NCBI GenBank assembly: GCA_034430175.1
Contig: DAOUFI010000023.1
Location: forward strand, 16,592-80,591
Source: Anaerolineaceae bacterium
Lineage (GTDB): Bacteria > Chloroflexota > Anaerolineae > Anaerolineales > Anaerolineaceae
Direction: 5' to 3'
Length of the DNA stretch: 64,000 nt
The position numbers were made by a program, and so were the translations under genes. Below, piece after piece: positions 2,877 to 62,171 of the stretch. Under the pieces are notes generated by a model. That model saw only the letters and a program-made list of their open reading frames with translations, was not told the origin of the DNA and searched no databases. How positions within the stretch are numbered: position 1 is the stretch's first letter; every line of letters begins with the position of its first letter.

Positions 2877-3850
2877 GGGGTCAAGACCTGGCTCGTCCAG
2901 GCACGCTCCTGCATGTACCAATCGACCAGGGCTGCGATGCCCTCATCCAGCGTTACCTGCGGTTCCCAGCCCAATATCTGGCGGGCTTTTTCCACGTTCG
3001 CCCAGTTGGCATTCACGTCGGCCGGGTTCTTGTCGATGTACTTGATCAGACCTTTGCGGCCCAGGCGGTCTTCGATCTTATGCAGTAACTCATTGATGGT
3101 GATGGTTTCGTGACCTCCCAGGTTGATGATCTCGTAGCCCATTGGCTTGAGACCAAGCAACACACCGCGGGCGATGTCGTCAAGGTAGGTGAAACCGCGC
3201 ATCTGGTTACCGTCGCCGGTGATTGTGACCTGCTTGCCCTCAGCCAGCCACTGGACGAAGCGGAACATCACCATGTCGGGCCTACCGGCCGGTCCGTAGA
3301 CCGTGAAGAAGCGGAAGATGGTGACATCCAGACCGAAGAGATGATGATAGGTATAAGCCATCACTTCAGCGGCCTTTTTGCTGGCGGCGTAGATTTGCAA
3401 TGGATGGCTGGAATCGGCATCTTCGGGGGTGGGCAGCGGTGGGTTGGAACCGTAGATGCTCGAGGTCGAGGCCATAACGAGTTTCTTGATGCCGTTCTGA
3501 CGGCAATACTCAAGGATATTCAAAGTGCCATTGGCATTGGATTCGAAATAAGTGGTCGGGATCTCAACTGCCTGACGAACCCCTGCCCGAGCCGCCAGAT
3601 GGATGACAGTGTCGATCTTGGGATAGTTCGCAGCGATCTCGCGGAACAACTCAGCGCGTCGGATGTCTTCCTGCAGGAAAGTGAAACCGGAAAGCTTTTT
3701 CAAACCTTCCAGCCGCCAGAGTTTCAGACGCACGTCGTAGGAGTCATTCAGGTTGTCGACACCGACCACCTGATGACCCTCGGCAAGAAGCATTTCAATC
3801 ACGCGGCGGGCGATGAACCCTGCCGCACCGGTGACCAGATACTGTGACAT
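2873..3850 (-). CDS. NAD-dependent nucleotide-sugar epimerase/dehydratase (SDR family, UDP-uronate 4-epimerase-like)
   Basis: GAAGFIA Rossmann motif at the N-terminus and a YAASK catalytic motif, 325 aa. It shares a TAATG overlap with the upstream dehydrogenase. Confidence 0.8.
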   Translation of the reverse strand: MSQYLVTGAAGFIARRVIEMLLAEGHQVVGVDNLNDSYDVRLKLWRLEGLKKLSGFTFLQEDIRRAELFREIAANYPKIDTVIHLAARAGVRQAVEIPTTYFESNANGTLNILEYCRQNGIKKLVMASTSSIYGSNPPLPTPEDADSSHPLQIYAASKKAAEVMAYTYHHLFGLDVTIFRFFTVYGPAGRPDMVMFRFVQWLAEGKQVTITGDGNQMRGFTYLDDIARGVLLGLKPMGYEIINLGGHETITINELLHKIEDRLGRKGLIKYIDKNPADVNANWANVEKARQILGWEPQVTLDEGIAALVDWYMQERAWTSQVLTP

Positions 3851-17072: not shown

Positions 17073-17101
17073 TTGACACCCCCCGGTGCCTATGATAAAA
17101 T
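17073..17101 (+). promoter_or_regulatory. sigma70-type promoter of tRNA-Glu
   Basis: TTGACA (17073-17078), a 17-nt spacer, then TAAAAT (17096-17101). The mature tRNA 5' end lies 15 nt downstream. Confidence 0.6.
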
Positions 17102-17115
17102 CTCTTCGCTCAGAC

Positions 17116-17188
17116 GCCCCCATTGTCTAGTGGCCTAGGACGTGGCCCTCTCAAGGCCAAAACTCGGGTTCGAATCCCGATGGGGGCA
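17116..17188 (+). tRNA. tRNA-Glu (anticodon CUC)
   Basis: Cloverleaf folded by hand: acceptor GCCCCCA/TGGGGGC, D arm GTCT-AGTGGCCTA-GGAC, anticodon arm TGGCC-CTCTCAA-GGCCA, variable loop AAAC, T arm TCGGG-TTCGAAT-CCCGA, discriminator A. 73 nt, CCA not encoded. Confidence 0.9.
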
Positions 17189-17313
17189 CTTTCTATTTAA
17201 CAACGACGATTTCTTTATCTTGTTTACTGGCCCTCTCAAGTCTCACCCTGCTGCACTGGGCAGGAAACTTGGGTTCGAATCCCGATGTCCCCTACGGGGA
17301 GGCTGCGCACGGG
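17187..17313 (+). repeat. tRNA-Glu-derived repeat unit 1 (trailer + anticodon-arm fragment + T arm + acceptor 3' fragment, with hairpin inserts)
   Basis: 127-bp unit containing TGGCCCTCTCAAG, a 24-nt insert, AAACTTGGGTTCGAATCCCGATG, a 23-nt insert with the hairpin tcccc-tac-gggga, and GGGCA. It lacks the acceptor 5' strand and D arm. Confidence 0.85.
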
Positions 17314-17460
17314 CACTTTCTATTTAACAACGACGATTTCTTTATCTTGTTTACTGGCCCTCTCAAGTCTCACCCTGCTGCACAGGGCAGGAAACTCGGG
17401 TCCCCTTTCGGGGATAATAATTCGAATCCCGATGTCCCCTGCGGGGAGGCTGCGCACGGG
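17314..17460 (+). repeat. tRNA-Glu-derived repeat unit 2 (same as unit 1 plus 20-nt hairpin insert in the T arm)
   Basis: Same order of segments as unit 1 with 3 substitutions. An extra cccctttcggggataataat is inserted between GGGT and TCGAATCCCGA. Confidence 0.85.
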
Positions 17461-17463
17461 GTA

Positions 17464-17487
17464 CACACCCGAAGGGTGGTTTCTTAT
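17464..17487 (+). terminator. weak terminator-like hairpin closing the tRNA-Glu/repeat transcript
   Basis: Hairpin caccc-gaa-gggtg followed by gTTTCTT. Only a 5-bp stem, so this is tentative. Confidence 0.3.
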
Positions 17488-17553
17488 GGGGTAAGGCACT
17501 AAGTGCTCCTTGGAGTATATGATGCCTTAGTCCGATCAATTAGATAGTCGTCT

Positions 17554-19117: not shown

Positions 19118-19351
19118 ATGGTAGTGAAAGAAGAGTGTCAGGCCTATCAGAATCGCTGGAAAGAGGTGGAGGCTGTCGTCGCGGAAGAAAGGCGAACAGC
19201 ATCTTTGGAATTGCGCTGGCAGCAATTGAACAGTGCTTATGCCATGGCACAAAAACTGGGGTGGGTTCGTGAAGATCAGAGCGAAGCTGAGGTTTTTGCT
19301 TTATGGGCAAAATTGAAAAAGGAAGCCATCCTAAAGTCACCGAAAATTTGA
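19118..19351 (+). CDS. small helical protein of unknown function (candidate partner/antitoxin of the downstream nucleotidyltransferase)
   Basis: 77-aa ORF with helical heptad-like composition. Its stop overlaps an in-frame TTG of the next gene (TTGA). No family recognised. Confidence 0.45.
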   Translation: MVVKEECQAYQNRWKEVEAVVAEERRTASLELRWQQLNSAYAMAQKLGWVREDQSEAEVFALWAKLKKEAILKSPKI

Positions 19352-19902
19352 AACAATTCCACGATCCGCTTGTGGCTGCACTAAGATTGATTTCCGTGTA
19401 TGGAAGCAACGGTGTGATTGTTGGTGGGATTGCTTCCAGTCTGCTTGGAACACCACGTTACACTGTCGATATTGATATCGTTTTACTGATCGCAGATGAA
19501 GGGATATCAAAGTTAGTCATCGAAGCTGAAAAACTGGGGATGACACCCAGAATAAATGCTGCGGAAGAATTTGCTGAAAAGAACCGGGTTTTATTGCTTC
19601 GTCACAACATCAGCGGAACAGACATCGACATAATTCTAGGAAGCCTGCCTTTCGAAGTGGCTATGGTGCAACACAGCCAGGTAATGGCTGTGGGTGGATT
19701 GGAATTACGCCTGCCCACGCCAGAAGACCTAATTATTATGAAGACAATTGCGCATCGTGAGAAAGATCTGGGGGATATTCGTACGATCGTGCAATGTCAC
19801 CCACAACTGAATCGGGAGTACATTCACTCCTGGTTGACACAATTTGAGCAAGCTTTGGATCAATCGGATTTATGGGAGCAAATATCAAAGATCTTGCAGT
19901 AA
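19348..19902 (+). CDS. minimal nucleotidyltransferase-fold protein (MNT/AbiEii/DUF2204-like)
   Basis: VGGIASSLLGTPRYTVDIDIV matches the G[GS]-x9-12-DxD pol-beta NTase signature. A C-terminal helical region carries K-x4-R-x-KD-x2-D. The start is TTG 19348 (TTGA coupling) or ATG 19303. Confidence 0.6.
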   Translation: MKQFHDPLVAALRLISVYGSNGVIVGGIASSLLGTPRYTVDIDIVLLIADEGISKLVIEAEKLGMTPRINAAEEFAEKNRVLLLRHNISGTDIDIILGSLPFEVAMVQHSQVMAVGGLELRLPTPEDLIIMKTIAHREKDLGDIRTIVQCHPQLNREYIHSWLTQFEQALDQSDLWEQISKILQ

Positions 19903-28428: not shown

Positions 28429-28538
28429 GCACTCCGATAAAATGGCAAAGTCAGCAAAAGCTGGCGGCGCAAAGTCAAGGGTCTAAAGTGAGAACAGCGA
28501 TCCTCACCACGATAGCCTGACTGACCGAGAATAGTGAC
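28429..28538 (+). promoter_or_regulatory. c-di-GMP-I (GEMM-I) riboswitch aptamer, unit 1
   Basis: AUGGCAAA-GUCAGC-AAAA-GCUGGC-GGCGCAAAGUCAAGGGUCUAAAGUGAG...CUCACCACGAUAGCCUGACUGACCGAGA parallels V. cholerae Vc2 (GGGCAAACC..GAAA..GGGACGCAAAGCC..GGCCUAAACC...GGGGUUACCGAUGG). The P1 pairing CACU/AGUG closes the unit. Confidence 0.72.
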
Positions 28539-28543
28539 GTTAT

Positions 28544-28614
28544 GCGAAAGCAAACGGAACAAGTCCGTGATCTAAAATCATCTTAAGTTGATCAAGATGC
28601 CGGACAACCGAAGG
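28544..28614 (+). promoter_or_regulatory. divergent GEMM-I-like middle unit (degenerate aptamer or expression platform)
   Basis: GC-GAAA-GC mini hairpin, then AAACGGAACAA, then GUCCG-U-GAUC-UAAA-AUCA..UGAU-CAA-GAU-GC-CGGAC-AACCGAAGG. It shares the P-stem/UAAA-CAA internal loop and the 3' ACCGAAGG with units 1 and 3 but lacks CGCAAAG. Confidence 0.3.
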
Positions 28615-28702
28615 CTAACCTCGCGAAAGCCTGGAGCGCAAAGTCAAGGGCCTAAAACCAGAAGACAAAGGTCAAGGCAGCCTGACTACCGAAGAGTGCA
28701 TC
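28596..28702 (+). promoter_or_regulatory. c-di-GMP-I (GEMM-I) riboswitch aptamer, unit 3
   Basis: AAGGCUAA-CCUCGC-GAAA-GCCUGG-AGCGCAAAGUCAAGGGCCUAAAACC...GGUCAAGGCAGCCUGACUACCGAAGAG. A possible closing helix is GAUGC/GCAUC. It shares an identical 15-mer, GCGCAAAGUCAAGGG, with unit 1. Confidence 0.72.
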
Positions 28703-62029: not shown

Positions 62030-62155
62030 AATACCCTCCGCCAGGGGAGGGTTGTGTGTTGATTCGTGAATTCCTCCGCCGGCATTATCCGGATCAGGTC
62101 ATGCGGGTCGAGGACTGTGCGTCCTCCTCTCAGCCCGGCGTTCGGGCTCCCCGTT
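62030..62155 (-). promoter_or_regulatory. TPP (THI-box) riboswitch with SD-sequestering/terminator hairpin
   Basis: On the minus strand, GGGGAGCCCGAACGCCGGGCUGAGAGGAGGACGCACAGUCCUCGACCCGCAUGACCUGAUCCGGAUAAUGCCGGCGGAGGAA carries the CUGAGA and ACCUGAUC(C/U)GGAUAAUGCCGGCG hallmarks. It is followed by CCCUCC-CCUGGC-GGAGGG-UAUUUUUUAUG. Confidence 0.9.
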
Positions 62156-62171
62156 CTGTTTGATTAAGCGC

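Follow-up and report, generated by a model that had tools for sequence, protein, structure and literature searches.

The 64-kb window analysed here is a stretch of an Anaerolineaceae genome assembled as a 2.9-Mb draft of 37 contigs (the contig holding the window is labelled C23). Its sole tRNA gene, located at 17116-17188/9 by ARAGORN, codes for tRNA-Glu(CUC) and is followed directly by an array of two tandem units which combine a copy of the trailer with a 5'-truncated copy of the tRNA and are split by short GC hairpins (Table 1). The gene is preceded by a strong sigma-70-type promoter that is conserved, as the upstream matches in relatives of the same genus begin about 40 nt before the tRNA. 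This promoter probably drives the array together with tRNA-Glu(CUC). The array sits between the promoter-driven tRNA and the single terminator-like site found 3' of it on the same strand, and would probably be transcribed as a trailer of ~370 nt and then be trimmed away.

The two units measure 127 nt and 147 nt. They are composed of the trailer and of tRNA positions 27-73, interrupted by hairpin inserts of 24, 20 and 23 nt. Two direct repeats, both 98% identical, relate them: one of 91 nt at a spacing of 127 nt (17184-17274 and 17311-17401) and one of 40 nt at a spacing of 147 nt (17274-17313 and 17421-17460). A 91-nt match at this level of identity is not a product of chance. Tandem Repeats Finder does not report the repeat, probably owing to the low copy number (about two) and the indel, and this result does not contradict it. 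The segment TGGCCCTCTCAAG, which corresponds to tRNA positions 27-39, has three copies, starting at 17143 within the tRNA, at 17228 and at 17355. The T-arm block AAACTYGGGTTCGAATCCCGATG (positions 44-67) is found at 17160 and 17265 and as a split copy at 17392-17434, while the 23-nt insert common to both units reads TCCCC-TRC-GGGGA-GGCTGCGCAC. Three substitutions (17258 T/A, 17270 T/C and 17294 A/G) and the 20-nt insert distinguish unit 1 from unit 2. This insert, CCCCTTTCGGGGATAATAAT, is placed in unit 2 exactly 3' of G53-T54, and unit 1 provides the empty counterpart.

Neither unit receives an ARAGORN call or, in Infernal searches with E up to 1, a hit to the tRNA family or to any other Rfam family. 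They lack the acceptor 5' strand and the D arm and thus cannot yield a tRNA. The three open reading frames (ORFs) that extend across the repeat have no Pfam match. An earlier note on this DNA, made from its letters alone, had proposed one true tRNA-Glu(CUC) with its promoter followed by two fragment units that are not tRNA genes, had described the layout of the units with the three substitutions and the 20-nt insert in the T arm, and had considered that the ORFs merely translate the repeat. ARAGORN and Rfam agree with the first statement, the repeat analysis reproduces the second to the base and the Pfam result supports the third.

The T-rich 'TTTnTATTTAA' start of the trailer is also found behind the tRNA-Glu gene of relatives. 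More generally, the T-rich trailer start TTTTTATTTAA, positioned directly 3' of the discriminator base, recurs in many Anaerolineaceae tRNA genes. Starts of this type are seen at 17189-17201 of the window and in L030, L032, L034, L038, L148 and L149, and a separate terminator hairpin is often missing behind them.

Table 1. Features of the tRNA-Glu(CUC) locus and copies of two palindromic elements. Positions refer to the window unless a contig or locus label is given; G000 is the genome of the window.
Feature	Position	Strand	Basis or remark
Sigma-70-type promoter TTGACA-17-TAAAAT with TG extension	17073-17101	+	11/12 consensus matches
Intact tRNA-Glu(CUC), without encoded CCA	17116-17188	+	ARAGORN; Rfam RF00005, 62.9 bits
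39-nt trailer, copy 1 (CTTTCTATTTAAC...)	17189-17227	+	Repeat analysis
Unit 1 body	17228-17315	+	Direct-repeat comparison; no tRNA call
Unit 1, tRNA positions 27-39	17228-17240	+	
Unit 1, 24-nt hairpin insert	17241-17264	+	
Unit 1, tRNA positions 44-67, T arm intact	17265-17287	+	
Unit 1, 23-nt hairpin insert TCCCC-TAC-GGGGA+GGCTGCGCAC	17288-17310	+	
Unit 1, acceptor end GGGCA	17311-17315	+	
39-nt trailer, copy 2	17316-17354	+	Direct repeat, exact duplicate
Unit 2 body	17355-17461	+	Direct-repeat comparison
Unit 2, tRNA positions 27-39	17355-17367	+	
Unit 2, 24-nt insert	17368-17391	+	
Unit 2, AAACTCGGGT	17392-17401	+	
Unit 2, 20-nt T-loop hairpin insert CCCCTTTCGGGGATAATAAT	17402-17421	+	Fits order-wide pattern TCCCC-N-GGGGA-tail-TTCGA
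Unit 2, TCGAATCCCGATG	17422-17434	+	
Unit 2, 23-nt insert	17435-17457	+	
Unit 2, GGGG	17458-17461	+	GGGG-T where unit 1 has GGGCA
Terminator-like hairpin CACCCGAAGGGTG (17466-17478), then GTTTCTT	17466-17487	+	Conserved in conspecific strains
Copies of GTCATTGCGAG...CGAAGCAATCCCC	G000 C10:51563, 51708; C4:52647/56209/56818; C11:24129; C12:24455; C18:39039; C26:19105; C32:137558; L108 790-850; L039		
REP palindromes with loop insert	G000 C23:1510-1548 (just 5' of window), C1:243205, C14:15972		

Arrays of this kind are found at many other tRNA genes of the genome. A scan for matches of 10 nt or longer to the last 24 nt of each tRNA, at a distance of up to 600 nt from the 45 tRNA genes, detected a downstream match at 16 of them. 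Two of these correspond to neighbouring paralogous genes, leaving 14 genuine arrays at the genes for Lys-UUU, Leu-UAA, Gly-GCC, Cys, Ser-GGA, Arg-CCU, Glu-UUC, Met, Pro-UGG, Glu-CUC, Pro-GGG, Val-UAC, Gln-CUG and Lys-CUU. Weaker downstream cases exist at the Asn and His genes. An upstream match was found at only three tRNA genes, each explained by neighbouring genes, and such tRNA-tail matches were absent from the reverse-strand and random controls.

The array genes carry one to four tandem units, each made of a trailer and a 5'-truncated copy of the 3' part of their own tRNA, and the trailers within these units often include a full intrinsic terminator. The left boundary of the unit is in the variable loop, at positions 42-45, in most arrays and in the anticodon arm in the array of the window. 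The tRNA-Glu(UUC) gene on contig C14 is followed by four units, of which the fourth holds two inserts in tandem. The insert of its unit 2, TCCCCTACGGGGAGGCTTCGCAC, is identical to the acceptor insert of the window at 22 of 23 positions, while the flanking tRNA-derived bases differ. No ORF lies inside the arrays of this genome (ORFs were listed at all arrays, Pfam being run around the window only).

The inserts belong to a family of hairpins. Thirteen T-loop inserts were gathered without assuming any hairpin sequence, and all 13 consist of a perfect hairpin of 4-6 bp followed by a tail of 5-9 nt. They are positioned between T-stem position 53 and TTCGA, with the exception of the Pro-UGG insert, which follows C56. 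Their stems (TCCCC/GGGGA, TCCC/GGGA, TACCC/GGGTA, TACCT/AGGTA and CACCC/GGGTG) differ by base pairs, which denotes compensatory change. The other insertion spots are the anticodon loop and the acceptor 3' strand, where the hairpin enters between the second and third bases (between TG and GGGGC). The 20-nt T-loop insert of the window is the widespread member of the family, while its 23-nt and 24-nt inserts are local members.

Two sub-families are represented in this genome. The first, TCCCC...GGGGA followed by TAATAA, is present at Glu-CUC, at Lys-CUU and in an Arg-like array on contig C21, and the second, TACCC...GGGTA followed by CTACG or CTGTG, at Met, Pro-GGG and Gln. The tail TAATAA is confined to this genome, other genera having TGATA, TGCTA or TGTTA, and its presence at three unlinked loci points to exchange between loci. 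Hairpins are also shared between genomes: the 13-nt hairpin TACCATCGAGGTA occupies the T-loop of Pro-UGG here and lies within the anticodon-loop insert of the Glu(CUC) unit in G020, a different species of the same genus, and TCCCCATTGAGGGGATGCTA is found behind Asn in one genome and, with the tail TGATA, behind Gly in another. The hairpin sequence is unlike the local T-stem and independent of it. Templating of the hairpin by fold-back from that stem was considered and rejected, as TCCCC/GGGGA sits beside the T-stems ACGCG, CGAGG and CAGGG.

The motif TCCCC-N3-5-GGGGA has 16 copies in the genome, nine of which are in arrays, for a total of about eight expected by chance. Counts of bare hairpins across the genome equal the shuffled level or reach only about twice that level; searches anchored on the tail retrieve almost exclusively array copies. 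A dispersed repeat resembling repetitive extragenic palindromic (REP) elements was discarded as an explanation because the motif with its tail is almost confined to tRNA-derived arrays. Three REP palindromes have a hairpin-plus-tail insert in their central loop (e.g. GGGCACGGC / GTACCCTAACGGGTACTTTGT / GCCGTGCCC). The presence of the same hairpin type in tRNA loops and in REP loops makes the loop of a DNA hairpin appear to be the common target. The acceptor-side tail motif GGCTNCGCRCGGGGCA was also tried as a family-wide module and abandoned on its count of 6 in 201 family genomes, which is about the control level.

A separate observation concerns the transfer-messenger RNA (tmRNA) encoded directly behind the tRNA-Val(UAC) array (G000 C25:58670-59063). 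Its 5' end, GGGGATGAC...TTCGAC, has GGGGATGA in common with the 3' arm and tail of the T-loop hairpin consensus (GGGGATGATA-TTCGA), which may be a coincidence.

The distribution of the T-loop hairpin was assessed with the strict pattern TCCCC-N3-6-GGGGA-N4-8-TTCGA. Matches exist in 92 of the 201 Anaerolineaceae genomes and represent 48 of the 74 genera, against a total of about nine hits for the reversed pattern used as control. The consensus reads TCCCC-loop-GGGGA-TG[A/C/T]TA-TTCGA, and runs typically have a period of 68-90 nt. Ten runs were inspected and each lies directly 3' of an intact tRNA gene (Gly-UCC, Val-CAC twice, Ser-CGA, Arg-UCG, Gly-GCC, Lys-CUU, Asn, Arg-GCG and Glu-CUC). They comprise 4-9 units in which the trailer is followed by positions ~42-53, the hairpin and positions 54-76. 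The trailer and the sequence 3' of the hairpin hardly differ from the gene, and substitutions are frequent in the 10-nt piece 5' of the hairpin. Hairpin sub-types that are identical including the loop (ATTGA, GGAA, GCAG) are met again behind other tRNAs and in other genera. Since the hairpins have no source in the local sequence and their sub-types are common to different loci and genera, they are of exogenous origin. The suspicion of the earlier note that small hairpin insertions colonise the units is borne out by the 20-nt T-loop insert, which belongs to this order-wide family.

Presence and absence of the trait run by whole genera. In a sample of the phylum, consensus-type tandem hits are confined to Anaerolineaceae and to a second family of the same order, and only isolated non-consensus matches were found in the other orders and classes sampled. 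Leptolinea tardivitalis, a cultured member of the family, has a short fragment. A literature search on tRNA fragment arrays in Anaerolineae or Chloroflexota retrieved nothing relevant, and the arrays are apparently an undescribed habit of Anaerolineales.

Comparison of the tRNA-Glu(CUC) locus across the genus reveals a rapid change of what follows the gene. The gene itself is single in all relatives examined. Plain tandem tRNA-Glu genes, considered in the earlier note as a finding that would speak against its interpretation, were looked for and occur in none of these relatives, and its alternative of a decaying tRNA array is not supported. The units begin in tRNA loops and have never possessed 5' halves. 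In G017, G020, G018 and G006 the downstream fragment begins at the anticodon loop and has two or three hairpins. It begins in the T-loop in G001 and L039, with the acceptor hairpin only, and G024 has a plain fragment 3' of the terminator. Some species have no fragment at all.

Turnover extends to strains. Two conspecific contigs from other metagenomes (L108 and L109) have flanks nearly base-identical to those of the window and a different array, in the order tRNA, trailer, one unit, a different trailer, a decayed partial unit and the same terminator. Their unit has the 5' variant seen in window unit 1, joined to the T-loop hairpin and TGC variant seen in unit 2. The second trailer holds a 'GTCATTGCGAG...AGCAAATCCC' palindromic element, and the decayed unit keeps the same 23-nt insert. 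In the simplest history both arrays descend from one of three units: crossing-over between units 1 and 2 would have removed a unit in the other strain, and the window strain would have lost the segment between the two 23-nt hairpins. Such strain differences between identical flanks show that arrays grow and shrink by homologous recombination.

The palindrome GTCATTGCGAG-(variable hairpin)-CGAAGCAATCCCC is a second element with about 12 copies, often placed 13-14 nt past the 3' end of a tRNA or of a unit. It matches no Rfam family at gathering or E-value thresholds. Its reverse strand gives rise to spurious 'LLAMT/FARND' peptides of a kind known from many phyla.

The reading preferred here, with a probability of about one half, is that the locus is a tRNA-linked repeat array generated by local tandem duplication and unequal crossing-over and invaded by a loop-preferring mini-hairpin, the units being a DNA-level by-product and not genes. 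As the arrays show, a segment reaching from a tRNA loop to the end of the trailer was initially duplicated in tandem, the intact gene remaining first. The strain comparison shows that the units are then multiplied, lost and homogenised by unequal homologous recombination, with each other and with the 3' part of the gene. As a consequence the trailer and the part 3' of the T-loop stay identical to the gene, in a concerted evolution limited to the 3' side, and the short 5' piece drifts. The spare copies would finally be invaded by GC hairpins of 19-23 nt with a stem, a short loop and a tail of 5-10 nt. The pattern of this last step is apparent from the inserts and its mechanism is conjectural: the hairpin may spread as a site-specific copy-and-paste mini-element, or by short-patch transfer between T-loops, acting on hairpin loops through a putative factor. 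Units 1 and 2, which differ at the T-loop by exactly the 20-nt insert, represent an empty and a filled site. The hairpins are seen in spare copies only, as would be expected if a hit on the working gene were lethal, and the array would have no function of its own.

Several points weigh against this reading. No enzyme and no donor copy of the hairpin have been identified, and we know of no precedent for a mobile unit of 19 nt. Genes for Y1 (HUH) transposases are nearly ubiquitous in the family, and their presence does not follow that of the arrays. Selection for function could just as well explain why stem, tail and even loop sub-types are strongly conserved from genus to genus. The left boundary of the unit is at a constant distance of about 10 nt 5' of the hairpin, a link which two independent steps do not explain. 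Right boundaries at 9-18 nt past terminator stems, together with left boundaries in tRNA loops, would also fit an RNA intermediate. Unit 1, finally, could have lost its insert by conversion from the gene instead of unit 2 having gained it.

A Y1 (HUH) transposase was evaluated as the mover of the hairpin and rejected, because 162 of the 201 genomes contain the Pfam family, in array-bearing and array-free genera alike, and only a weak hit exists in this one. Besides transposases of the IS200 type, most Anaerolineaceae genomes have one large ORF (~480-1100 amino acids) with a Y1_Tnp-like domain whose product may be a domesticated HUH protein.

A bolder proposal, put forward tentatively, is that the 19-23-nt hairpins are the smallest autonomous-looking mobile DNA known. 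An enzyme specific to Anaerolineales would insert them in hairpin loops (T-loops, anticodon loops and REP loops). The cell would survive an insertion at a tRNA gene only if a tandem duplication accompanied it, so that the element itself would drive the formation of arrays.

Selection for function is the basis of the main rival explanation, which is unlikely, in which the units, or the hairpin within the T arm, serve as modules of functional RNA; its best argument is the conservation of stem, tail and loop sub-types between genera. Transcribed jointly with the tRNA and cut into small RNAs that display a hairpin-modified T arm and the tRNA 3' strand, they would serve as decoys, sponges or signals for processing or termination, with a conserved protein reading the hairpin and its tail. 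The location of the array between the promoter and the only terminator, in the window and in the conspecific strains, is in line with this role. So are the conservation of the stem and tail (TG-TA) over two families while the loops and the third tail position vary, the compensatory variation of the stems, and the genome-specific tails, as co-evolution with a trans-acting factor would give. Three of the tRNA-linked repeats (TLRs) of Escherichia coli are small RNAs (PMC8144298). However, many arrays have a strong terminator at the end of every unit, so that distal units would rarely be transcribed, and genus relatives often have the tRNA-Glu fragment 3' of the terminator or have none, which argues against a conserved co-transcribed role. 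Copy number and architecture vary among species and even strains, RNAfold gives no common fold for the whole unit, and the units have no Rfam family.

Another explanation, quite unlikely, treats the entire unit as a miniature element capable of integration, or as what is left, without genes, of a cassette that targeted tRNAs. It would enter the loop by site-specific recombination or through homing driven by a nuclease, bring a new 3' end and displace the old hairpin-marked 3' end downstream, arrays then recording repeated entries. The fragments do start at the classical integrase sublocations, the anticodon loop and the T-loop, and the intact gene is always first with the most decayed units in distal position. 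Nevertheless, apart from the hairpin the unit is made up entirely of sequence from the local gene and its trailer, so that it cannot come from elsewhere. There is no ORF within the arrays and no integrase or nuclease around the window locus, the Pfam search of all ORFs in the 5 kb to each side having found neither an integrase nor a recombinase. A real island at tRNA-Arg(TCG) of this genome leaves a plain fragment without hairpin, and homologous recombination alone explains the differences between strains.

A very improbable alternative is that the units are retro-duplications, in which loop-cut 3' pieces of the unprocessed pre-tRNA are reverse-transcribed and recombined behind the gene, hairpins being added to the RNA or to the cDNA. 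It would account for left boundaries in tRNA loops (positions 27-40, 42-45 and 53-56) and for right boundaries 9-18 nt past terminator stems. Boundaries beside hairpins are, however, equally typical of replication slippage. The genome has one weak RVT_1 match, below cut-off, hairpins are found in REP loops too, and this scheme offers no mechanism for the addition of a conserved hairpin.

That the repeats are an artefact of a metagenome-assembled genome, as a 37-contig draft and the proneness of tandem repeats to misassembly might suggest, is hardly credible: two independent metagenome contigs hold the same unit base for base, which indicates that the arrays are not created by assembly, arrays are present in single-contig genomes of 3.4-3.5 Mb, and the pattern is found in 92 genomes.

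The genes around the locus are ordinary and code for Era, YhhN, YitT, hydrolases, a GNAT protein and an EamA transporter; YitT assigns the genome to Anaerolineaceae. The ORF at 19303-19902 (+) has DUF6036 and AbiEii-like nucleotidyltransferase domains, and its product may act as the toxin in a toxin-antitoxin pair of type IV. Rfam also identifies in the window a tandem pair of cyclic di-GMP-I riboswitch aptamers (28434-28528 and 28603-28693 on the + strand; 65.6 and 58.8 bits) and a thiamine pyrophosphate riboswitch (62054-62163 on the - strand; 71 bits).

Four known systems invite comparison. Archaeal non-canonical tRNA introns and split tRNAs also have short inserts in the anticodon loop, T-loop or acceptor region. 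The units described here differ by their lack of the acceptor 5' strand and of the D arm, and no bulge-helix-bulge motif was seen by eye. To our knowledge, bacteria do not have the archaeal splicing endonuclease.

REP and REPIN elements are mobilised by RAYT (Y1 HUH) transposases, and the insertion sequences IS1397 and ISKpn1 target REP loops. Like the array hairpins, REP elements are GC-rich hairpins (20-35 nt) whose stems are conserved, whose loops vary more freely and which have a short conserved flank. The array hairpins differ in not being dispersed through intergenic space, their sites being loops of tRNA copies and a few REP loops, and they have no 5' GTAG, although the opposite strand of TCCCC-TAC-GGGGA is GTAGGGGA. 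A classical REP family of the GTAG type, GTAGGGGC[R]...[Y]GCCCCTAC, exists separately in the genome, with ~25-40 copies whose inner stems co-vary. Two REP copies flank a RAYT-like Y1 transposase ORF (C6:~2960-3190), and two others are in the window, at ~29534 and 49119 (C23:46125 and C23:65710).

Fragments of tRNA genes in prokaryotes have been attributed to the integration of islands or to CRISPR (PMC9897764). Partial tRNAs left by integrases (Williams 2002, for the sublocations; PMC9897764) are, like the units described here, 3' partial copies starting from the anticodon loop or T-loop, with an intact gene retained. The present arrays have no island or integrase, are spaced by 70-150 bp (127 nt in the window) instead of kilobases, and comprise a duplicate of the native 39-nt trailer together with hairpin-split fragments. 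Scars of integrase attachment (att) sites were rejected, since a true att pair in the same genome looks different. It is formed by tRNA-Arg(UCG) (G000 C18:10183-10259), a hybrid gene followed by island DNA, and by the displaced original 3' part (C21:21180-21530, L099), which starts in the anticodon loop, beside matching AAGGTGCA(A)TTAAGGTGCA repeats. The displaced fragment is plain and without hairpin, and is followed by its old array of three hairpin-bearing units. The view in the earlier note that the units are tandem duplicates of the trailer and the tRNA 3' part, and not att scars, is strengthened by the lack of an integrase within 5 kb, by the duplicated trailers and by the 14 similar loci.

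The arrays create spurious ORFs and can mislead the annotation of tRNAs and att sites in Chloroflexota. The hairpin tag at one nucleotide position of the T-loop makes the process traceable, through filled and empty sites and through sub-types common to several loci. Genera with and without the trait provide material for finding the responsible enzyme by phylogenetic profiling, and Anaerolineaceae includes cultured strains.

The closest described relatives are the E. coli TLRs, so that the statement of the earlier note that no described element has this layout requires correction. They were reported at tyrT as 3.14 repeats of 178 bp (Egan and Landy 1978), and 22 TLRs at 10 loci were then listed (Rudd 1999), as cited in PMC8144298. 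Both kinds of repeats are tandem units lying directly behind a tRNA gene in the same orientation and ending in tRNA 3'-terminal bases. In both they are often within the tRNA transcription unit, occur at several loci per genome and mostly have no known function, and the tRNA part is repeated together with the spacer or trailer, as is the case in the window. The part copied is longer in Anaerolineales, from position 27 or 44 to position 73, compared with 18-19 bp in E. coli. The contiguous last 18-19 bp of the tRNA are not repeated in the window, where the end is GGGCA only and the 23-nt block of positions 44-67 is split off by the 23-nt insert; the Lys-ttt, Met, Pro-tgg and Gly-gcc arrays do have a contiguous tRNA end of 15-21 nt. 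Known since 1978, the E. coli TLRs are still without an explanation for their origin and role, and the Anaerolineales arrays are far more frequent, being present at about one third of the tRNA genes of this genome and, by one strict motif alone, in nearly half of the 201 family genomes. They reach up to nine units, carry conserved exogenous hairpins at fixed tRNA positions and form a trait specific, among the sampled genomes of the phylum, to Anaerolineales. What is new in comparison with the E. coli TLRs is thus the length copied, the conserved hairpin interruptions, the frequency and the restriction to one lineage.

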